Of a DNA stretch of 32,000 nucleotides, positions 20,434 to 30,487 are shown piece after piece. The notes beneath the pieces were generated by a model. That model had not been told where the DNA came from and did no database searches. It worked only from the letters and a program-made list of their open reading frames with translations. The position numbers were made by a program, and so were the translations under genes. How positions within the stretch are numbered: position 1 is the stretch's first letter; each line of letters begins with the position of its first letter. Origin of the DNA: an uncultured archaeon (lineage in GTDB: Archaea > Asgardarchaeota > Thorarchaeia > Thorarchaeales > Thorarchaeaceae); the NCBI GenBank assembly GCA_964354495.1, contig CAYHAA010000019.1, forward strand, positions 29,335-61,334, in the 5' to 3' direction.

Positions 20434-21279
20434 TCAGTCCTTGGAGAAGCCCCCATGATGGAATTCGATCCTGCACTTGAGACCAGCATCTTTGCATTCT
20501 GTTTCAATTGATTCTGCGACTTCATCCCAAAGAGAATTGTCACTTCTTATTCGATGATAGTATTCAGAGAGCTCGGGATACTTGCTGTCAATCAATTTCA
20601 TTATTCGAGGTGTGTTGTGACCTCGAAAGTTCAGATTTTCAAAACGAAAATCATCAGTGATTCGACTAGCCGTTTCAATGACCATCTTCCAATCTGAGAC
20701 CCTTGGGAAAATCGGTGAAATAAAAACATAGGTTTTGATGCCCTTGTCAGATATTTTCTTCAGGGCATCCAGCCTGTCTGCCGGTTTTGATGCACGTGGC
20801 TCAATAATACCTGCTAGTTCGTCATCGAGAGTGTTCAGAGAAACTCCGACTTCAATTCTTTTGAATTGCTCGAATAGGTCAATGTCACGTTCCACTAGTT
20901 TGGACTTGGTCAGAACTTGGATATCTCCCTTGGTTCCAATGAGCTGTCTTAAGATTCGCCTAGTGTTTTCATACTTCGCTTCGAGAGGCGTATAGGGATC
21001 TGTGACCGAACTCAACAAGAGAGTCTTTCCATCATACTTCTCTGGTTTGATTTTGTCCAGTTCGAATTGCTTTACATCTAAGAATTCTCCCCATTTGTCC
21101 CCTGCGTGATTAGTGAATCGCTTCATGAACTCCGCATAACAATAGATGCAACCATGTTGACAGCCGACATAGGGATTGGCAACGAAATCTATCCCCGGAA
21201 TGTTGCTCTTGCTGATGATGCTCTTTGCCTTGACAGATGTGACTTTCATTATTCTCAGAATTAATCGCGAGGAATGCAC
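20434..21279 (-). CDS. Radical SAM protein, SPL/Rv2578c-like family
   Basis: NPYVGCQHGCIYCYA (CxxxCxxC), SSVTDPY, LTKS, IEPRAS and FISPIFP. Likely start ATG 21249 (MKVTSVKAKSII). Confidence 0.9.
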   Translation of the reverse strand: MHSSRLILRIMKVTSVKAKSIISKSNIPGIDFVANPYVGCQHGCIYCYAEFMKRFTNHAGDKWGEFLDVKQFELDKIKPEKYDGKTLLLSSVTDPYTPLEAKYENTRRILRQLIGTKGDIQVLTKSKLVERDIDLFEQFKRIEVGVSLNTLDDELAGIIEPRASKPADRLDALKKISDKGIKTYVFISPIFPRVSDWKMVIETASRITDDFRFENLNFRGHNTPRIMKLIDSKYPELSEYYHRIRSDNSLWDEVAESIETECKDAGLKCRIEFHHGGFSKD

Positions 21280-21319: not shown

Positions 21320-22357
21320 CTAAGAAATGCCTGCAGGCAAATGAATTGCAAACTCACAGTAGTCGTCACCCTTTGTGAGTGCCTTGACAACCTCTATCTT
21401 CAACGGAGTCTCAAGAATTCCTTCGAAAAGTCTTCTCGGCCATCCGGCTGCACAATAGCAGAACGTGCCCGGCATTTCATCCCAGAAGTCTTCTAGCAGT
21501 GGACAGAAGCAGGCAGCATGCATTCTTTCTTTCCTTGTCGTGGCTTTCTCAAAGGCTTCCTTTCTGGCAGGAGCTTTTCTGTCGTAGATGATATTTCCCT
21601 CTCGGCGCATTTTCGGGTAGAAGAAGTGACCGTCCTTCATGGCCTGAATTACTGTATCGATACTCTTTGTCTCTCTATACAGATCTCTCATTGCTACGAT
21701 TAACTCAGCAGGGAATTCATGACCGCAGCACGATAGGACCTCATACTTCTGATCCTCTGTAGCTATCTCATCAAGTTCCATCAGAGCATCCTTGATGACC
21801 GATGCACGTTTGGGTTGCATGGTATCCAAAGCTAGTTCTTTGAAACCACTAAGAACACGGTCCTTCTTTCTCTTTCCTAGGACACGCTCTAAGTGATATG
21901 CCAATTTGCCCTCCCAACCAATAATCATGGCTTGGATTTCAACAACAGTTTTCTCGGGATTCTCAAGGTCGAGAGCTATGAATGCTTCTCTTCCATTCTC
22001 CTGAATGGGATGTCCGTGTCCGTATATCTCAGGTACTAGCTCTCGATAGGTATTCATAATTGTTTCATAGGGGCCTTCGTGAAGGGCAGTAGCAGCAATC
22101 CCGCCCTCTAGGGTAACGACTTCGAAACATCCGCCTTCAATTGGTCTGGACAAAGGAATACAGACATCCATTGTTCTTCCTTTTTTGTCTGTCAAAGGAA
22201 AGTGTTGTACAACAAAAGGATAGCCAGCTGTAGCAACTCCTGCGACTTGTTTCAATCTGGCGAACACATCAGGAAGATCCTCCACCTTTCCATGAATGCG
22301 ATGCGTCAGCACGAGAGCATCTTTGATTTTCTTGTATGTCACTCCCATTTCCGACAC
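21320..22357 (-). CDS. GyrI-like small-molecule-binding domain fused to a Cys-rich DUF6144/V4R-like domain
   Basis: N-terminal GyrI pattern ATALHEGPYETIMNTYREL…REAF. C-terminal CCGH, CFCP, FCYCAAGW and GDDYCEFAI. Confidence 0.7.
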   Translation of the reverse strand: MSEMGVTYKKIKDALVLTHRIHGKVEDLPDVFARLKQVAGVATAGYPFVVQHFPLTDKKGRTMDVCIPLSRPIEGGCFEVVTLEGGIAATALHEGPYETIMNTYRELVPEIYGHGHPIQENGREAFIALDLENPEKTVVEIQAMIIGWEGKLAYHLERVLGKRKKDRVLSGFKELALDTMQPKRASVIKDALMELDEIATEDQKYEVLSCCGHEFPAELIVAMRDLYRETKSIDTVIQAMKDGHFFYPKMRREGNIIYDRKAPARKEAFEKATTRKERMHAACFCPLLEDFWDEMPGTFCYCAAGWPRRLFEGILETPLKIEVVKALTKGDDYCEFAIHLPAGIS

Positions 22358-22493: not shown

Positions 22494-22904
22494 CTATTTC
22501 GCATCCAAAACGAGCACCTTAGGGAGCTTCAACAACTTCCCATAGTTTCTACCAGTCGTTCCTCCCCTGAAGAGTAGCTTTCTCGCTCCAAATCTGTTCT
22601 TCGTAAACATCATCTTCAGCGTGGAGTATTTCCTGTTAGTGAAGTACATCATATCCTCAGGGTCAGATATCAGCTCTAGGTCGTAGTCATCCAGCTTGCC
22701 TTTATTGAGAGTATATTCGCCACTTTCTGCAACCAGATTCACCCACATTATGAACTCCTCTTCCACATGCAAGCCTATGTTGATTCTAGCTCGGTACTCG
22801 TCAAGAGTCCTGGTGTTCTTGGGATTCTTCCGCTTATCAGTAATGACGTCCTCTATTACGGACTTGAATGTTAAGTACAATGTTTCTTGCGCTGCTGCAT
22901 CCAT
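22494..22904 (-). CDS. SCP2 (sterol carrier protein 2)-like protein
   Basis: Helix, then strands INIGLH/WVNLVAESGEYTLNKG, then DYDLELISDPEDMMYF: an SCP2-like pattern. Lies 20 nt downstream of a clear SCP2 gene. Confidence 0.55.
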   Translation of the reverse strand: MDAAAQETLYLTFKSVIEDVITDKRKNPKNTRTLDEYRARINIGLHVEEEFIMWVNLVAESGEYTLNKGKLDDYDLELISDPEDMMYFTNRKYSTLKMMFTKNRFGARKLLFRGGTTGRNYGKLLKLPKVLVLDAK

Positions 22905-23398: not shown

Positions 23399-23545
23399 TG
23401 ATCATAATGACTCGATTGAATGTTCTTGTATCAAGAGTATCTGACTGATAAATAGAGCTTAAGGAGATCTGAGGTCACTGAGATGTGCGAAGAACCTCAC
23501 CTTTGCATTCATCCAGACGCCTTATCTCCCTTGATGAACATCAGC

Positions 23546-23555
23546 CTTTTAAAAG
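23546..23555 (+). promoter_or_regulatory. Candidate TATA box for the AOR-ligase gene
   Basis: Palindromic CTTTTAAAAG about 43 nt before ATG 23598, within the divergent intergenic region. Confidence 0.4.
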
Positions 23556-23597
23556 CGTGTGACTTCGTTTCCTGAATAGTAAGGGGTCCGCTACATC

Positions 23598-26500
23598 ATG
23601 TATGGCTACATGGGCAAAATCCTGCGTATCAATCTGACCACTTCTAGAATAACTGAGGAATTCCCTGATGAAAAGACCCTACGAAAATACCTCGGTGGTG
23701 CAGGATTAGCTACCAAGATCCTACTTGAGGAAACTAAGAAGGGCATCGACCCCCTTGGACCTGAGAACAAACTCATCTTCATGACTGGCCCCCTTACAGG
23801 TACGAATTCACCCAGCACGGGACGATACAGCGTAGTAACAAAGTCACCCCTCACGAACGGATGGGGTCAGGCGAATTCCGCAGGATTCTGGGGGAGAGAT
23901 TTCAAACGCTCAGGTTTTGATGGCATAATATTCGAGGGAAAAGCACCAAGACCAGTCTATCTTCTCACTGAAGATGGAAAAGCAAGGCTGCTCGATGCAG
24001 CCAAGATATGGGGAAAGAACACATCTGAAACAACAAGAATTCTCAGGGAGAAGCATGGACCCAAATTCAATGTCGCCTGCATTGGTATCGCAGGGGAAAA
24101 CCTAGTCAAGTACGCGGCAATCATGAACGACTGCGATGAGGAGAACTGGGGTCGTGCAGCGGGACGGTGCGGCGTTGGCGCAGTCATGGGATCAAAGAAT
24201 CTGAAAGCAATCGCATCAAAGGGGACTCTGGAAATCCCCATTGCAGATCCGGATGCATACAAGCGCGAGGCAAAACAGAGATTCGACTGGGTGAACCAAA
24301 GCCTTCTGAAGATGACCCTTGAGGTCTATGGTACTGCTACGATGGTTGACCTGGTCAATGTAAAGGGAGGCATCCCGACTCGAAACTGGCAGACCGGTGT
24401 CTTCGAAAATGCAGAGAAGATTAACGGACAAGCAATCAATGACAACATCCTTGTGAAACGAAAGCCCTGCTTTGCTTGCCCTATTCATTGTGGGAGAATT
24501 GCTGAGATCAAGGAGGGCCCATTCAAAAGCAAAGGAGAAGGCCCAGAATATGAAACTCTCAGCTCATTCGGGACCATGTGTGGTGTGGACAGTCTAGAAG
24601 CCATCACGCTCGCACACTTCCTATGCAATGAATATGGCATTGATACGATCTCTGCAGGGAACACTGTCGGGTTTGCCATGGAGTGTCGCCAACGCGGCAT
24701 TCTGAAAGATGAGGACCTCGATGGCATGGACTTCTCTTGGGGAAATGCACAACTCATAGTTGACATTGTTCACAAGATTGGAAAACGTGAAGGAATAGGA
24801 GATCTCCTTGCTGAAGGAACTATGAGGATGGCTGAGAAGCTAGGTCATGGGTCTGAGAGGTTCGCGATGCATGTCAAGGGACTGGAGCTTCCGGGTTATG
24901 ACAGTAGAGCAGCCAAGATAACTGGACTTGCCTATGCTGTTGCCAATCGGGGTGGAGATCACATCACAGCGTATATTGAAGGACCTGCTTTTCTTTCAAT
25001 GCCTTTCATGATTGTCGAGAATGCGGATGTGGGAGACCCGCTATTGGAAATCCCAGAGATAGCATTAGTCGTCAAGAACTTCGAGGACGCGTTCGGTATC
25101 TTTGATGCCATTGGTGGGTGCAAATTCATGGGGATGGTGCTCACTACCGACGACTGGGCGAAACTGATCTCCACATTGATGGGCTATGAGTTCTCTGCGG
25201 ATGACTTTCGCAAAACAGGTGAGAGAATCTACAATCTAGAACGGGCATATATTCTGAGAGAAGGGTTTACGCGAAAAGATGACACATTGCCTCGACGGTT
25301 GCTAGAGGACCCAATGCCTGAAGGACCAGCCAAGGGGCATGTTGTGAACCTAGATGTTCTCCTGAATGCGTACTACAACTATCGTGGATGGGATACTCAA
25401 GGCAGACCCACCAAAGAGAAACTGAAGGAACTGGGTTTGGAATGGGTCGCTGGTGTAATCCCTCAATACGGATATTCTGAGAGAGAGATTACAGGGACAC
25501 AAACAATTCAGATCACTGCTTCCAACAAAGAGACATCATCACTGGAATCAACAACACCGGCTGAAATCATTGGTGACAGACCATGGTTCAGCAGCTACAA
25601 AATAGGTCCATTCAAGCTCAAGCATTCGATGGCTCCGTATCCTGAGATAAATGTCTACAAGTTCCTAGAGGACTCAGCATCGAATTTCCCTGATATTGAA
25701 GCCTGTGAGTACTTAGATCAGCACATGACGTATCAGGAATTGAAGTTGAAGGTTGACAAGCTTGCCTCAGCATTCATAGCACTTGGTGTGAAGAAAGGGG
25801 ATGCAATTGCCACTGTACTCCCATCATGTCCTGAATTCATAATAGCCGACTATGCCGCAATGAAAATCGGAGCCATCCATGTTCCTCTGAGCATCATGCA
25901 CAAGGAAGACGACTTGTTGTATGAACTCAAAGAGAGTAAGGCCGAAATTGTGGTATGTTCGTCCAGACGTGTGGAAAGAGTCAATCGAGTGAAACCGGAA
26001 ACGAACGTCAGAATTGTCATCTCTACTCCTACAAGGGTGTTTCCAGACTATGAATATCCTGACGTGGAACAGATTGATGATGACAACTATTTCCTTCTTA
26101 ATGACTTGATAGAACAGTACGAGCCACATATGGGAACTGTTGAGATCGACCCGAAGCAGGATATCGCCCTACTGCCCTTCACAGGCGGCACTACGGGGCT
26201 TCCAAAAGGAACTCTGCTGACTCATTATAATTTGACAAGTGCTGTCATACAGTCAATTCAATGGATGATGGACCCTCTAAAGGAGGGTATCATAGGACAG
26301 AGCGCTGGTCTGATATGTGTGCCCATCTTCCACGCATACGGTCATTGGGCTGTGCATGCATGCTTGTCATGGGGAATGAAAATATACCTGATTGACCCGC
26401 GCGATATCTCAAGAATTGCTGACACTATCAACAAACACCGTCCGTTCGTTGTGTTTGCAGTCCCAGCTCACTATACCATGCTAAGCAAGTTCGACCTGAA

Positions 26501-27245
26501 GAAGGGGCAGATATTCTACTACTCAGGTGCAGCGGCACTTCCTGCTGATCTTGCCGAGGAGTTCGAGAAGAAGACAGGAGTGCCCATGGGCGAAGGCTAT
26601 GGTGCAACAGAGTCATCCGCAGTTGTCACAATCAACCTGTCTGCGCTTTCAAAGGTCACCGGCTTCATGAGCGAAACAAAGAGGGGCATCGGTGTTCCTA
26701 TCCCTGATACAGAGATCAAAATCGTCGATCCCGAAACCGGCAAAGAGCTTCCGCTTAACGAGCGAGGAGAAATCTGGATCCGTGGACCGCAAGTTATGAA
26801 GGGATACTTTCCAACTCCTGGAAGTGGACTAAGGGAAGGCGGATGGTTGCCCATGGGCGATATTGTCGAGATGGATAGTGATGGCTACTTCCGAATCGTG
26901 GACCGGCTGAAGGACATGATCAATGTCTCGGGAAACAAGGTGTACAGTAGAGTCATTGATGACATCCTTTGCGCACACGAAGCGATCGATGTTGCAGGTG
27001 TGATAGGGATTCCTGATCGTGAGAGACCTGGGAGTGAGAGAGTGAAGGCTTTCATTCAGTTGAAACCAGAATACAGAGGTAAGGTCTCGGAAAAAGACAT
27101 TGTCGACTACTTGAAGGACAAAGTGAAACCGTATGCTGTGCCTAAATGGGTAGAGTTCAGAGATGAATTACCTCTGACCATCGCGATGAAACTTTTCAAA
27201 AAGAAGCTACGCGAAGAAGAAATCGCAATAAGAGAACAACTCTGA
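23598..27245 (+). CDS. Fusion of tungsten-dependent aldehyde:ferredoxin oxidoreductase (aa ~1-617) and long-chain acyl-CoA ligase/adenylate-forming enzyme (aa ~660-1215)
   Basis: AOR motifs YGYMGKILRINLT, GRAAGRCGVGAVMGSKNLKAI, CFACPIHCG, PEYET, DTISAG, HVKGLE and GCKF. Ligase motifs LPFTGGTTGLPKG, GEGYGATE, GD…DGYFRIVDRLKDMINVSG and PKWVEFRDELP. One uninterrupted frame. Confidence 0.92.
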   Translation: MYGYMGKILRINLTTSRITEEFPDEKTLRKYLGGAGLATKILLEETKKGIDPLGPENKLIFMTGPLTGTNSPSTGRYSVVTKSPLTNGWGQANSAGFWGRDFKRSGFDGIIFEGKAPRPVYLLTEDGKARLLDAAKIWGKNTSETTRILREKHGPKFNVACIGIAGENLVKYAAIMNDCDEENWGRAAGRCGVGAVMGSKNLKAIASKGTLEIPIADPDAYKREAKQRFDWVNQSLLKMTLEVYGTATMVDLVNVKGGIPTRNWQTGVFENAEKINGQAINDNILVKRKPCFACPIHCGRIAEIKEGPFKSKGEGPEYETLSSFGTMCGVDSLEAITLAHFLCNEYGIDTISAGNTVGFAMECRQRGILKDEDLDGMDFSWGNAQLIVDIVHKIGKREGIGDLLAEGTMRMAEKLGHGSERFAMHVKGLELPGYDSRAAKITGLAYAVANRGGDHITAYIEGPAFLSMPFMIVENADVGDPLLEIPEIALVVKNFEDAFGIFDAIGGCKFMGMVLTTDDWAKLISTLMGYEFSADDFRKTGERIYNLERAYILREGFTRKDDTLPRRLLEDPMPEGPAKGHVVNLDVLLNAYYNYRGWDTQGRPTKEKLKELGLEWVAGVIPQYGYSEREITGTQTIQITASNKETSSLESTTPAEIIGDRPWFSSYKIGPFKLKHSMAPYPEINVYKFLEDSASNFPDIEACEYLDQHMTYQELKLKVDKLASAFIALGVKKGDAIATVLPSCPEFIIADYAAMKIGAIHVPLSIMHKEDDLLYELKESKAEIVVCSSRRVERVNRVKPETNVRIVISTPTRVFPDYEYPDVEQIDDDNYFLLNDLIEQYEPHMGTVEIDPKQDIALLPFTGGTTGLPKGTLLTHYNLTSAVIQSIQWMMDPLKEGIIGQSAGLICVPIFHAYGHWAVHACLSWGMKIYLIDPRDISRIADTINKHRPFVVFAVPAHYTMLSKFDLKKGQIFYYSGAAALPADLAEEFEKKTGVPMGEGYGATESSAVVTINLSALSKVTGFMSETKRGIGVPIPDTEIKIVDPETGKELPLNERGEIWIRGPQVMKGYFPTPGSGLREGGWLPMGDIVEMDSDGYFRIVDRLKDMINVSGNKVYSRVIDDILCAHEAIDVAGVIGIPDRERPGSERVKAFIQLKPEYRGKVSEKDIVDYLKDKVKPYAVPKWVEFRDELPLTIAMKLFKKKLREEEIAIREQL

Positions 27246-27315: not shown

Positions 27316-28416
27316 ATGACAATTCACCTGATTCACCACAAGGATTTGCAGGTCTTCACGGAAAAAGTACTCATGAAAATGGGAACCTCAGAGGAACATG
27401 CATCCTGCGTTGCTGATAATCTCGTGACGTCCAATCTACGAGGGATTGACTCTCATGGCGTTGGCAGACTCAAGAGATATGTGGACGGTATCAGAACAGG
27501 ATACATTATTCCAGGTGCAAAACCGAGAGTTGAAAGAGAGAGCCCAGTGAGCGCGAACATTGATGCATTGAATGGACTAGGGCAGCCTGCTGGCGTTTTT
27601 GGAATGAGGAAAGCAATTGAGAAGGCACTGAAATCTGGCGTAGGGATTGCTACAGTCTTTAATTCGAACCATTTTGGTTTTGCAGGATACTATGCAATGA
27701 TGGCTCTACAGCATGACCTAATTGGAATTACCATGACTAATTCTGAACCCCTTGTTGTACCTACGTTTAGCAAGAATGCAATGATTGGAACAAATCCAAT
27801 TGCCTTTGCAGCTCCAACGAAAACCGAGAGACCGTGGGTGATGGACCTTGCCACAAGTGTTGTTCCAAGTGGGAAACTCGAAGTCTATGATCGATTGGGC
27901 AAGAACATTCCTACAGGATGGGCAACTAATGAGAGAGGAGTCAGTACCACGAATCCCACACAAGTGTTGACCAGTCTCTATCAAGGTCTTGGTGAAGGCG
28001 GAATATTCCCCCTGGGCGGCGAAGGCGAACTCCATGGGGGTCACAAAGGATATGGCTTGGCAACAATGGTCGAGATTCTTTGCGGAGTAATGTCCGGAGC
28101 AAATATCGGCAGAGATGTAACGTTCAGGAAGAATGGAAACTCCAATCATCCCAGAGTAGGGCACTTCTTCATGGCGCTGGACCCATCGTGTTTCATTGAT
28201 GTTGATTCATTCAAGACTAGAATGGATGACCTGATTAATCGCTTGAAGAACGCTGAGAAGGCTGAAGGACAGAGTAGGATATTCGTTCATGGTGAGAAAG
28301 AATTCGAAGAACACGAACGTCGTGCAAGGAATGGAATACCTATTGACGACAAGACTGCCGAGATTCTAGTTGGATTCTCAAATGAGTTCTCGGTTGACCT
28401 GCAGTTCAGTAAATAG
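27316..28416 (+). CDS. Ldh_2 family oxidoreductase (malate/L-lactate/L-sulfolactate/ureidoglycolate dehydrogenase type)
   Basis: DSHGVGRL, NSNHFG, GTNPIAFAAP, DLATS and GGHKGYGL. SD GGAGG at 27308-27312. Confidence 0.92.
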   Translation: MTIHLIHHKDLQVFTEKVLMKMGTSEEHASCVADNLVTSNLRGIDSHGVGRLKRYVDGIRTGYIIPGAKPRVERESPVSANIDALNGLGQPAGVFGMRKAIEKALKSGVGIATVFNSNHFGFAGYYAMMALQHDLIGITMTNSEPLVVPTFSKNAMIGTNPIAFAAPTKTERPWVMDLATSVVPSGKLEVYDRLGKNIPTGWATNERGVSTTNPTQVLTSLYQGLGEGGIFPLGGEGELHGGHKGYGLATMVEILCGVMSGANIGRDVTFRKNGNSNHPRVGHFFMALDPSCFIDVDSFKTRMDDLINRLKNAEKAEGQSRIFVHGEKEFEEHERRARNGIPIDDKTAEILVGFSNEFSVDLQFSK

Positions 28417-28453
28417 AAACACAATAATGCTTGTTTTGTTTCGGGAGTTCAGA

Positions 28454-30487
28454 ATGTCGGAAGATTCCATCAGCATGAATGAGCAGGTTGAGATTGAGCA
28501 AAAGGTGTTGGAACTACTCAAGAAACTGACATTGAAAGAGAAATTCAGGCTGTTGACTAGTCACGGTAAGTTGCGAATGTACACGACTCCGCCATTAAAA
28601 CGACTTGCCATACCTTCCTTCAAGACAACCGATGGACCACTCGGAGTGGCAATGCATTCAAGCGGATTCAAGAAGAATACGCGCTTCCCAGCCACCATCT
28701 CTCTTGCTGCCACATGGAATAGAGACCTCGCTCACGAGGTGGGCATTGCCATGGGCGAGGAGGTGCGAGCAGTTGGAAGACACGTGCTTCTTGCCCCGGG
28801 AATGAACATTGCACGGACTCCTCTTAATGGTAGGACATTCGAGTATTTCAGCGAGGACCCGTATCTGACCAAGGAGATGGCGATTCCACTCGTCAAAGGC
28901 ATCCAGAGTCAGCGTGTCGCAGCATGCCTCAAGCATTACGCAGTGAATAACCAAGAGACCAATCGAAGGAGTTCAAGTTCCGAGGTGGATGAGCGCAGCC
29001 TTCATGAGATCTACCTCAGGGCCTTCAGGGCAACAATGAAGGAGGCGAATGCCTGGTCTGTCATGACTGCGTACAATATGGTGAATGGAGTGTATGTGAG
29101 CGAGAACAGGTATCTACTCAGAGAGACCCTGACGGAGAAGTGGGGTTTTGATGGGATTGCTATGACAGACTGGTTTGCCTCGAGGACTGCCAAGACTGCA
29201 GAGGGGTGCATCAACGCAGGTCTCTCTCTCGAGATGCCTTGGCCAAACAAGTATGGACTCAAGAATCTGGAGAATGCTTACAAAGAGGGCAAGTTTTCTG
29301 ATGAGACACTAGACGACCTTGTCAGCAGGAATTTACGAGTGATGTTCCGGACAGGTCTATTCGACCCACCTGAGAAGTTGCCCAAGGGATCGAGAAACAC
29401 GCCTGCACACCAGAATCTTGCGAGGCATGTTGCTGAGGAAGGGATTGTTCTATTGAAGAACGACAAGAACGCTCTTCCCATAGATTTCAATTCTATCAAA
29501 AGGATTAGTCTGCATGGTCCTAACTTGTTCAAGAAGTTTGGCAGACTATTGAGCGGAGGGTCATCGGCGGTGAGCCCTCCCCATGAAGTCACTCCCCTTG
29601 AAGGGATGGCTGTTAAATGTCGGGGCAGAGTAGGATTATTTCCCCACGATACATTCGCTGATGTTGCGATAATCTTCGCTGGTCTCGACCACAGTCGTGG
29701 AAAAGACTCGGAATCCAAGGATAGAGAGTCCCTGCATCTCGATGACAAACAAGTGAAGATGATTAAGAAGGTTGCAGACGACCATCTTCGGACTGTGGTA
29801 TGTATGATTGCCGGCAGTCCGATAGCAATGGAGGAGTGGTCAAACGATGTTGAGGCCATTCTAATGTGCTGGTACGGGGGCATGGAGGCGGGTCATGCAA
29901 TTGCGAATGTCCTCTTTGGTGATGTAAACCCATCAGGGAGATTACCGTTAACATTTCCAAGGCGATTAGAAGACTCTCCTGCTCATTACACAGGAAGTCC
30001 GAGGAACTATCCAGGTGACGAAAACAGGAGGGTCTACTACGATGAGGGCATATTCGTTGGGTATCGCTGGTTCGACGAGAAGCAAATTGAGCCTCTGTTT
30101 CCGTTTGGGTTTGGTCTGTCGTACACGGAGTTTGAGTTAGGTTCAGTCCAAATCGATATGGAAACCATCAGCAGATCAGAGGACAGTCTGCTTGTTGAAG
30201 TCGATGTGACGAACACGGGGAACCGTGCGGGTTCTGAAACGGTTCAGGTCTATGCGAAGGATATTGAAGCATCAGTCAAAAGGCCACCCAAGGAACTTGT
30301 AGGATTTCAGAAAGTGACCTTGGAGCCCGGGCAGACCAAGACAGTGCCTGTGAGAATTAAGGCCGATGACCTGTCATTTTTTGATGCAGAGAAGCATGAT
30401 TGGATGCTAGAGCCCGGAGAAATCAAGCTCCTTGTTGGAAAATCGTCTAGGAATGTCGACACAGAGATAGAACTCACTGTCAGATGA
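28454..30487 (+). CDS. Glycoside hydrolase family 3 beta-glucosidase with C-terminal Fn3-like domain
   Basis: TDGPLG, GRTFEYFSEDP, KHY, nucleophile MTDW, EEGIVLLKN, ESKDR and PLFPFGFGLSYT. Start placed at ATG 28454 because the tracked 28370 start overlaps the upstream gene. Confidence 0.92.
   Translation: MSEDSISMNEQVEIEQKVLELLKKLTLKEKFRLLTSHGKLRMYTTPPLKRLAIPSFKTTDGPLGVAMHSSGFKKNTRFPATISLAATWNRDLAHEVGIAMGEEVRAVGRHVLLAPGMNIARTPLNGRTFEYFSEDPYLTKEMAIPLVKGIQSQRVAACLKHYAVNNQETNRRSSSSEVDERSLHEIYLRAFRATMKEANAWSVMTAYNMVNGVYVSENRYLLRETLTEKWGFDGIAMTDWFASRTAKTAEGCINAGLSLEMPWPNKYGLKNLENAYKEGKFSDETLDDLVSRNLRVMFRTGLFDPPEKLPKGSRNTPAHQNLARHVAEEGIVLLKNDKNALPIDFNSIKRISLHGPNLFKKFGRLLSGGSSAVSPPHEVTPLEGMAVKCRGRVGLFPHDTFADVAIIFAGLDHSRGKDSESKDRESLHLDDKQVKMIKKVADDHLRTVVCMIAGSPIAMEEWSNDVEAILMCWYGGMEAGHAIANVLFGDVNPSGRLPLTFPRRLEDSPAHYTGSPRNYPGDENRRVYYDEGIFVGYRWFDEKQIEPLFPFGFGLSYTEFELGSVQIDMETISRSEDSLLVEVDVTNTGNRAGSETVQVYAKDIEASVKRPPKELVGFQKVTLEPGQTKTVPVRIKADDLSFFDAEKHDWMLEPGEIKLLVGKSSRNVDTEIELTVR

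Follow-up and report, generated by a model that had tools for sequence, protein, structure and literature searches.

Does an uncultured archaeon make an aldehyde oxidoreductase and an acyl-coenzyme A (acyl-CoA) ligase as one protein, and if so, which conversion would such a protein carry out? This question is raised by a gene in a 32,000-nucleotide stretch of DNA, here called the window, from an Asgard archaeon of the family Thorarchaeaceae (GenBank assembly GCA_964354495.1, contig CAYHAA010000019.1, positions 29,335 to 61,334 of the forward strand). At 23598 to 27245 of the window (Table 1), a single open reading frame (ORF) with an ATG start, a TGA stop and no internal stop encodes 1215 amino acids, in which a preliminary description had recognized a full-length aldehyde:ferredoxin oxidoreductase (AOR) followed by a full-length acyl-CoA ligase. 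Pfam agreed with this description, since four families, and only these four at E ≤ 0.01, matched the protein over their full lengths: AFOR_N (residues 6-210, profile positions 1-199 of 199, E = 4e-78), AFOR_C (residues 237-614, 16-385 of 385, E = 1e-140), AMP-binding (residues 690-1071, 1-384 of 384, E = 5.6e-85) and AMP-binding_C (residues 1120-1196, 2-74 of 76, E = 4.5e-12), the C-terminus lying 19 residues past the last. PP-binding and NAD_binding_4 gave no match in the protein. The source metagenome-assembled genome (MAG) consists of 51 contigs and is 97.7% complete, with 3.84% contamination. A search of this genome found no second copy of the AOR-ligase pair, so that the fusion is the sole orthologue, next to ten further AOR paralogues (33-43% identity) and four further ligases (36-40%).

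The fusion is a genuine, conserved single gene and not an assembly artefact. A search of 5.8 billion proteins yielded 37 full-length cluster representatives of 1204-1226 amino acids, drawn from NCBI, JGI, ENA and Logan assemblies, all of which contain the four Pfam domains and no stops. Their identity to the window protein is 79-94% for those from Thorarchaeota MAGs and 62-63% for a Hodarchaeota group, and all catalytic and cofactor residues of both halves that we checked are invariant in these 37 sequences. When 301 genomes of the phylum were searched, at least 15 from the window's own family matched residues 1-1210 without interruption, seven further matches in this family end at contig ends and yet cross the junction in an open frame, and a second family has the fused form in two genomes. 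The continuity of the junction, which the preliminary description had proposed to check, was confirmed by DNA from other studies: a Logan contig of 2093 bp, ~93% identical, spans 23922-26014 without insertions or deletions, and the linker is also covered by contigs from two other runs. Two contigs of ~200 nt in metatranscriptome run X19 are 100% identical to the AOR half only and give a weak hint of transcription, with DNA carry-over possible.

Most of the sampled Asgard genomes carry the orthologous AOR (68-76% identity) and ligase (56-70%) as adjacent, separate genes in the same order. Of the genomes searched in the window's Thorarchaeota family, about 22 have the fused and 10 the split form in a patchy distribution, and the rest gave only paralogue-level matches with this query. 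The split form also occurs in a sister clade of the same genus (70-72% identity), in which the AOR ends with '...IDQIY' and a TGA stop, followed by a 21-nt spacer and a ligase ATG 7-10 codons later; in other split families the spacer measures 25-160 nt. Three loci of this sister clade, L013 (5864-5890), L014 and L022, keep AOR and ligase in the same frame, ~21 nt apart, with one TGA between them (in L022 also a TAG), and this junction is the one that the fewest mutations separate from the fusion. In the fused proteins the reading frame continues where the sister clade has its stop, therefore the linker corresponds to the former stop codon, the spacer and the start region of the ligase. Judging from these comparisons, the split pair is the ancestral state and the direct precursor of the fusion. 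The preliminary description had regarded a stop in the linker of close relatives as a sign of an assembly error or of recent read-through. Same-genus relatives do carry such a junction stop, but they form the separate sister clade with the ancestral two-gene arrangement and do not point to an assembly error in the window. Selenocysteine incorporation or programmed read-through at the TGA of the split clade was considered as well and set aside, given the normal ATG 7-10 codons later and the two stops in related loci.

How often the two genes were joined was examined with a maximum-likelihood tree of concatenated AOR and ligase sequences (28 rows), rooted on the paralogues of the source genome. 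The fused Thorarchaeota sequences group together as sister to the split clade of the same genus, and the fused sequences of the second family form a clade of their own, sister to a split locus of that family, all with supports of 99-100 in the Shimodaira-Hasegawa-like approximate likelihood-ratio test (SH-aLRT). A single fused clade is rejected by the approximately unbiased (AU) test with a log-likelihood difference of 319 and p = 2.5e-70; two origins had been anticipated from identity values before the tree was made, and the group used in the AU test was formally named only after it. The linkers of the two fused clades are unrelated in sequence. On phylogenetic grounds, AOR and ligase were thus fused twice independently in Asgard archaea. 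One genome of the window's family, G203, contains two fused copies, at C142:48-3680 and C40:23598-27227, which are 86% and 80% identical to the window protein and correspond to the two sub-clades of fused sequences in the tree. Either the gene was duplicated or transferred once fused, or strains are mixed, the contamination of this genome being about 6%.

The N-terminal 620 residues align end to end with Pyrococcus furiosus AOR from residue 1, and the structure of the latter (1AOR) is the best solved relative, with 558.6 bits. When the AOR half of an AlphaFold2 model was superposed on 1AOR, the TM score was 0.97 and the root-mean-square deviation (rmsd) 1.8 Å at 45% identity. The complete AOR motifs and complete adenylate-forming domain of the preliminary description could be traced to individual residues in both halves. 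Cys291, Cys294, Cys298 and Cys508 are equivalent to the [4Fe-4S] ligands Cys288, 291, 295 and 494 of P. furiosus AOR, and Glu319 and His455 to its Glu313 and His448; all are invariant in the 37 homologues, as is Asp503, with which the second pterin motif, of the D-x-x-G-L-(C/D) type, begins (D503-A-I-G-G-C508). The full-length AFOR_N and AFOR_C matches, together with the predicted three-domain AOR fold, place this half in the AOR family. Its structurally known relatives include, next to 1AOR, 9G7J (Clostridium autoethanogenum AFOR), 9MQX (a bifurcating AOR) and 8C0Z (Aromatoleum aromaticum AOR). It resembles the P. furiosus enzyme in the [4Fe-4S] cysteines, the catalytic Glu/His pair and the second pterin motif, and differs from it in that Glu332, which bridges the dimer in 1AOR, is replaced by Leu, and Asp338 by Asn. 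These four enzymes are either stand-alone subunits of ~605 residues or associate with ferredoxin-like or FAD subunits, and a CoA ligase is attached to none of them.

The ligase half aligns over its whole length, including the A10 lysine, with FadD-1 of Archaeoglobus fulgidus (3G7S), its best solved relative. The P-loop at T862-K870 (FTGGTTGLPKG, 861-871), E1005, D1088, R1103/K1105 and the A10 lysine K1198 could all be located, and the motifs A3 (the P-loop), A5 (GYGATE), A7 (D1088), the A8 hinge (DRLKD, 1102-1106) and A10 (K1198) are invariant or nearly so in the 37 homologues. By these sequence features, the half belongs to the class I AMP-forming acyl-CoA ligases of the ANL superfamily. The C-terminal 560 residues share the full two-subdomain ANL fold and the core motifs with 3G7S, with 4-coumarate:CoA ligase (5BSR) and with benzoate-CoA ligase (4EAT), although identity to these ligases is only 26-28% in structural alignment. 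Unlike FadD-1-type enzymes, it carries a conserved N-terminal extension of ~35 residues (PW..SY..GPFKL) and is fused to an AOR.

Between the two halves lies the linker, which the preliminary description had placed at about 25450-25570 as a Thr/Ser-rich segment and which indeed spans residues ~621-657 (25458-25568) and is rich in Thr, Ser and Glu. It is the only poorly conserved stretch in the 37 homologues, with a column conservation of 0.30 compared to 0.85-0.95 in the flanks (25-residue blocks of the 37-sequence alignment), and its length is roughly maintained. The AlphaFold2 model, which covers residues 1-1200 and was based on an 87-sequence alignment, reached a mean predicted local distance difference test score (pLDDT) of 90.1 and a predicted template modelling score (pTM) of 0.83, and its sole long stretch of low confidence (pLDDT < 50) comprises residues 626-656, so the linker of ~37 residues is predicted to be disordered. 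By the definition of the pTM, a value of 0.83 over 1200 residues exceeds what one well-placed half alone could yield, which suggests that the AOR and ligase halves are packed in a definite way in the model. The modelled ligase half is closer to the thioester-state structures 5BSR, 4G37 and 4EAT (rmsd ~5 Å) than to adenylate-state structures (~10 Å).

To see which other genes accompany the AOR-ligase unit, all ORFs of 22 loci were compared with the genes of the window. The gene upstream of the fusion, SCP2a, scores 19.9 bits with the Pfam SCP2 profile in the window, just below the cut-off of 21.3, whereas its orthologue in locus L018 is above it with 21.9 bits; the match of the L023 orthologue is weak. 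Of its 100 nearest Atlas clusters, 93 are SCP2 (top score 0.95), and the protein is probably a divergent member of the SCP2 family. A homologue of SCP2a adjoins the pair or the fusion in 21 of the 22 loci, the remaining one, L005, being cut off by the end of its contig. The homologue lies upstream in divergent orientation in the fusions, upstream in the same direction as the pair in the split sister clade, and downstream of the ligase in another family. Even the distant locus L023, from an unrelated assembly, shows the string SCP2-AOR-ligase, with a ligase of only 43% identity and a 7-nt overlap. A second small conserved partner, SCP2b, stands beside SCP2a at fused and split loci of the window's family. 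It has no Pfam match and no BLASTP similarity to SCP2a, its Atlas matches are mostly unnamed clusters with a minority of SCP2, and its AlphaFold2 model (12 sequences, pLDDT 50) was too poor to use. Within the flanks compared at these loci, no other neighbour is conserved. Split strings of AOR, ligase and SCP2 occur in Promethearchaeota, Hodarchaeota, Hermodarchaeota, some Thorarchaeota and more distant organisms; they share gene order and SCP2-like neighbour with the fusion and differ from it in consisting of two polypeptides, with a stop, a 21-160 nt spacer and a start codon in between, and they are uncharacterized, too.

What would such a protein do? The product of an AOR, a carboxylate, is the substrate of the ligase, therefore the two halves would catalyse consecutive steps, and the SCP2-like partner points to a hydrophobic substrate. 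We propose a single bifunctional polypeptide in which a P. furiosus-type AOR and a class I ANL acyl-CoA ligase are held together by a flexible tether of ~37 residues, and which arose, twice, when the stop, spacer and start between adjacent operon genes, AOR followed by ligase, came to be read through. A hydrophobic aldehyde, probably long-chain aliphatic or isoprenoid and handled by the SCP2-like neighbour, would be oxidized to the free acid at the AOR half, with two electrons going to ferredoxin; the acid would then be adenylated and thioesterified at the ligase half, with ATP being converted to AMP and pyrophosphate (PPi), and the resulting acyl-CoA would enter beta-oxidation. The fusion could fix the stoichiometry at 1:1 and keep both sites close, and since it is made at the N-terminus of the ligase, the mobile C-terminal subdomain would be left free to rotate. 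The acid/aldehyde couple has an E0' of about -580 mV, and aldehyde oxidation by ferredoxin is downhill (PMC12727526). Both forward steps are exergonic. The link to beta-oxidation made in the preliminary description fits the source genome, in which we found seven acyl-CoA dehydrogenase, three enoyl-CoA hydratase and two hydroxyacyl-CoA dehydrogenase matches. We give this forward route, from hydrophobic aldehyde to acid with reduction of ferredoxin and on to acyl-CoA at the expense of ATP, a probability of roughly 0.6; the gene itself, its domains, catalytic residues and conservation, the double origin and the SCP2 linkage are observed, whereas the metal, the substrate class, the reaction direction and any kinetic channelling we infer.

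Several observations weigh against the forward route or parts of it. The preliminary description had spoken of a channelled aldehyde-to-acid-to-acyl-CoA enzyme, and while the consecutive steps, the gene order, the two fusions and the SCP2-like neighbour are in line with this, the channelled part has only the hint from the pTM in its favour, as a linker that is variable and predicted to be disordered implies no tunnel or physical channel. A conversion by this route costs two ATP equivalents, while a CoA-acylating aldehyde dehydrogenase would need none. At the loci examined, no beta-oxidation gene lies beside the AOR-ligase module. Regarding a hydrophobic substrate, the ligase half scored below the cut-offs of all 25 listed NCBIfam long-chain-fatty-acid--CoA ligase models (the best, NF004837, with 356 bits against a cut-off of 476), so that it is not filed as FadD and a straight-chain fatty, an isoprenoid or an aromatic aldehyde may each be the starting compound, and 4-coumarate ligases are nearly as close to it as FadD-1, therefore the substrate may be aromatic. 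In the first pterin motif, N344-E-Y-G-I-D349, Asn344 takes the place of P. furiosus Asp338 and is invariant across the clade. For the tungstate-binding protein WtpA, no match was found in the 97.7%-complete genome, which says little for a MAG, and SBP_bac_11 gave one weak match. The AOR half may hold either tungsten or molybdenum. Finally, AORs can run reductively in vivo (PMC12727526).

The last point leads to the opposite flux, in which the ligase would run in reverse, from acyl-CoA, AMP and PPi to acid, ATP and CoA, and the AOR would reduce the acid to the aldehyde with low-potential ferredoxin, giving an ATP-conserving route from acyl-CoA to fatty aldehydes or alcohols, which would serve to dispose of electrons or to make lipid building blocks. 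Here, too, one step follows on the other, so that the fusion and the synteny fit equally well, and the thioester-type conformation of the modelled ligase half is compatible with the handling of CoA esters without being directional. Moreover, given a reduced ferredoxin pool and removal of the aldehyde, AFOR physiologically reduces acids (PMC12727526). However, the loci examined have no conserved alcohol dehydrogenase or other sink for the aldehyde next to the module, the Fe-type alcohol dehydrogenase of the genome adjoins a different AOR paralogue, and reduction of the acid is uphill at -580 mV. Reversal of an AMP-forming ligase, in addition, requires a high PPi level, and few organisms are known to carry it out. 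Asgard genomes usually gain ATP by means of ADP-forming acyl-CoA synthetases instead (PMC8163825). We therefore regard this direction as rather unlikely. The preliminary description had also mentioned a ferredoxin-linked counterpart of carboxylic acid reductase (CAR), in which the ligase would make an acyl-AMP or acyl-CoA and the AOR would reduce the activated acyl group to the aldehyde, with ATP paying for the reaction. For such a scheme speak the far less negative potential of the acyl-CoA/aldehyde couple compared to acid/aldehyde, the AOR-family member BamB, which binds a CoA thioester and whose structure 4Z3W is among the structural matches, and the packing of the halves suggested by the pTM. 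The protein nevertheless lacks, according to Pfam, both a peptidyl carrier protein (PCP) domain and a thioester-reductase domain, its AOR half is nearest to the free-aldehyde AORs 1AOR, 9G7J and 9MQX (42-45% identity) and far from BamB (26-27%), and it retains the catalytic Glu/His pair of the former. Most relatives, besides, are two separate proteins, and we know of no AOR that reduces acyl adenylates or thioesters to aldehydes. Membership of the CAR class is thus not supported, and a CAR-like reaction seems very unlikely. A broader, energy-coupled acid-to-aldehyde machine can be imagined, in which the ligase activates a hydrophobic acid or harvests ATP from acyl-CoA and the tungsten half reduces the acyl group with ferredoxin. 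We consider this quite improbable; if true, it would be a ferredoxin-linked functional counterpart of CAR or fatty-acyl-CoA reductase and a new reaction mode in the AOR family, and would provide Asgard archaea with aldehydes and alcohols of the fatty or isoprenoid kind.

The fusion might also be neutral, a read-through of the stop between co-expressed genes that leaves the halves to work independently on a general pool of aldehydes and acids, or to be separated again by proteolysis or internal initiation. The unconserved, presumably disordered linker would agree with this, as would the conserved Met just past it ('HSMAPYPE') and the separate genes in most lineages, and the event is mutationally cheap, since only 21 nt lie between the genes and one base change in the TGA of the sister clade would suffice. 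On the other hand, the fused state arose twice, persists down to 79% identity within the Thorarchaeota clade and is present in two copies in one genome, the length of the linker is maintained, and the AOR-ligase-SCP2 linkage is conserved over long distances, which argues for a common pathway of the two enzymes, regardless of what is gained by the fusion itself. A neutral fusion is, in our view, unlikely, though a fair rival to the forward route. An assembly artefact or pseudogene could be suspected in a MAG of 51 contigs with 3.84% contamination and same-genus relatives that have a junction stop. Yet the same open frame occurs in dozens of independent assemblies, contigs from other studies bridge the junction without insertions or deletions, the catalytic residues are invariant on both sides, and the stop-bearing relatives are a distinct clade with proper gene boundaries, which makes this explanation extremely improbable.

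The forward route has chemical parallels among known systems. In A. aromaticum, phenylacetaldehyde is converted via phenylacetate to phenylacetyl-CoA by separate enzymes, and in peroxisomes pristanal is converted via pristanic acid to pristanoyl-CoA with the involvement of an SCP2-type lipid carrier. These routes follow the same chemical logic, oxidation of an aldehyde followed by ATP-dependent CoA ligation, and are likened to the fusion by this logic alone; their enzymes are separate and mostly unrelated. CAR, with its order adenylation domain, carrier and NADPH thioester reductase, likewise combines an ANL adenylating domain with an acid/aldehyde redox enzyme in one chain. Unlike CAR, the fusion has no phosphopantetheine carrier and no reductase of the short-chain dehydrogenase/reductase (SDR) type, its domain order is reversed and its flux is likely oxidative, and the redox partner would be a tungstopterin enzyme with free acids and aldehydes as substrates and ferredoxin as electron carrier.

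Table 1. Features of the AOR-ligase locus, in window positions
Feature	Position	Strand	Basis
AOR-acyl-CoA ligase fusion gene	23598..27245	+	ORF and translation, four Pfam domains, 37 stop-free full-length homologues
AOR half: AFOR_N + AFOR_C, putative tungstopterin/[4Fe-4S] enzyme	23613..25439	+	Pfam, 1AOR match, invariant residues
Inter-enzyme linker, residues ~621-657, Thr/Ser/Glu-rich	25458..25568	+	Column conservation, pLDDT, position relative to split relatives
Predicted ANL (AMP-forming) acyl-CoA ligase half, with N-terminal extension 'RPWFSSYKIGPFKL...'	25569..27242	+	Pfam, 3G7S match, motifs
SCP2-like protein SCP2a, 157 aa	22925..23398	-	Pfam SCP2 near cut-off, Atlas features, conserved linkage
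SCP2b, 136 aa, second small conserved partner	22494..22904	-	Beside SCP2a in the window's family, at fused and split loci
Divergent intergenic region, common to fusion and SCP2-like genes; putative promoter region	23399..23597	.	Direct sequence reading

The intergenic region between the fusion and the SCP2-like genes may be an archaeal promoter region. It contains a TATA-box-like element, CTTTTAAAAG, at 23546-23555, ~48 nt 5' of the ATG of the fusion, and a Shine-Dalgarno-like GGGGT run at 23583-23587. Downstream, 70 nt 3' of the fusion, lies a gene of the Ldh_2 family (malate/L-lactate dehydrogenase type 2; 27316-28416, plus strand), followed by a GH3 glycosidase ORF (28370-30487, plus strand) that, with a TTG taken as its start, shares 47 nt with the end of the Ldh_2 gene; the true start of the GH3 ORF is probably later. 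GH3 occurs downstream of the fusion also in L007, and only there among the 22 loci, and Ldh_2 recurs in none. On the other side, beyond the SCP2-like genes, a GyrI-like/DUF6144 protein (21320-22357) and a radical SAM protein (20434-21279) are encoded on the minus strand. The wider neighbours differ between loci and give no clue to the pathway: L013 and L018 have a DAP-dehydrogenase-like gene, an aminotransferase, DUF1512, HAD and PPDK where the window has Ldh_2, GH3, GNAT, radical SAM and GyrI-like genes. No AOR lies beside the distant ligase representatives P0334 and P0354. Elsewhere in the source genome, at G000:C4:131797-134777, an Fe-type alcohol dehydrogenase is encoded directly 5' of another AOR paralogue (39% identical), which looks like a separate alcohol-aldehyde-acid couple.

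Other fusions of AOR were seen among the homologues. Many proteins of ~810-860 residues within P0053-P0097, from Methanomethylicia, Nezhaarchaeota and Promethearchaeota MAGs, combine a full AOR (40-50% identical) with a C-terminal domain of the 3-hexulose-6-phosphate synthase/orotidine monophosphate (OMP) decarboxylase fold, which possibly links oxidation of formaldehyde or other aldehydes with the ribulose monophosphate (RuMP) pathway. Among P0102, P0106, P0110, P0112 and P0084 are AORs with a C-terminal poly-ferredoxin (4Fe-4S) domain (750-840 residues) and an AOR with an N-terminal MoaD/ThiS-like domain (673 residues). A different large AOR fusion is the AlphaFold DB entry A0A653A1N1 of 1214 residues, in which the AOR occupies residues 550-1213, behind an N-terminal half of 550 residues.

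The preliminary description knew of no characterized protein with the AOR-ligase architecture, and none turned up in the PDB, the AlphaFold DB clusters or the full-text literature. No PDB chain or AlphaFold DB cluster representative was found that covers both halves, and phmmer against 1.84 billion representatives returned none matching both, although clusters whose representative is unfused may contain fused members. In the full-text literature, a coverage that excludes subscription journals, we came across neither an AOR-ligase fusion nor an AOR-ligase-SCP2 string, and in public records the fused proteins go under 'hypothetical' or 'AOR C-terminal domain-containing'. Tungsten oxidoreductases were sorted in a 2026 classification into 92 clades, of which only five have a defined physiological role, and a ligase fusion is not mentioned there (PMC13328260). 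Both enzyme families are well known; new are the way in which they are joined, the two origins of this architecture and its link to a pathway.

The single chain offers a convenient target for examining the coupled reaction, its direction and kinetic channelling, and a two-enzyme catalyst that takes an aldehyde to an acyl-CoA, or the reverse, could be of interest for biocatalysis. A fusion that arose twice, together with the SCP2-like neighbour, ties an uncharacterized AOR clade to CoA activation and points to hydrophobic substrates. Asgard archaea are the closest known archaeal relatives of eukaryotes, and the hypothesis that follows for them is that lipid-derived or other greasy aldehydes may enter their beta-oxidation, with a gain of low-potential electrons on the way.

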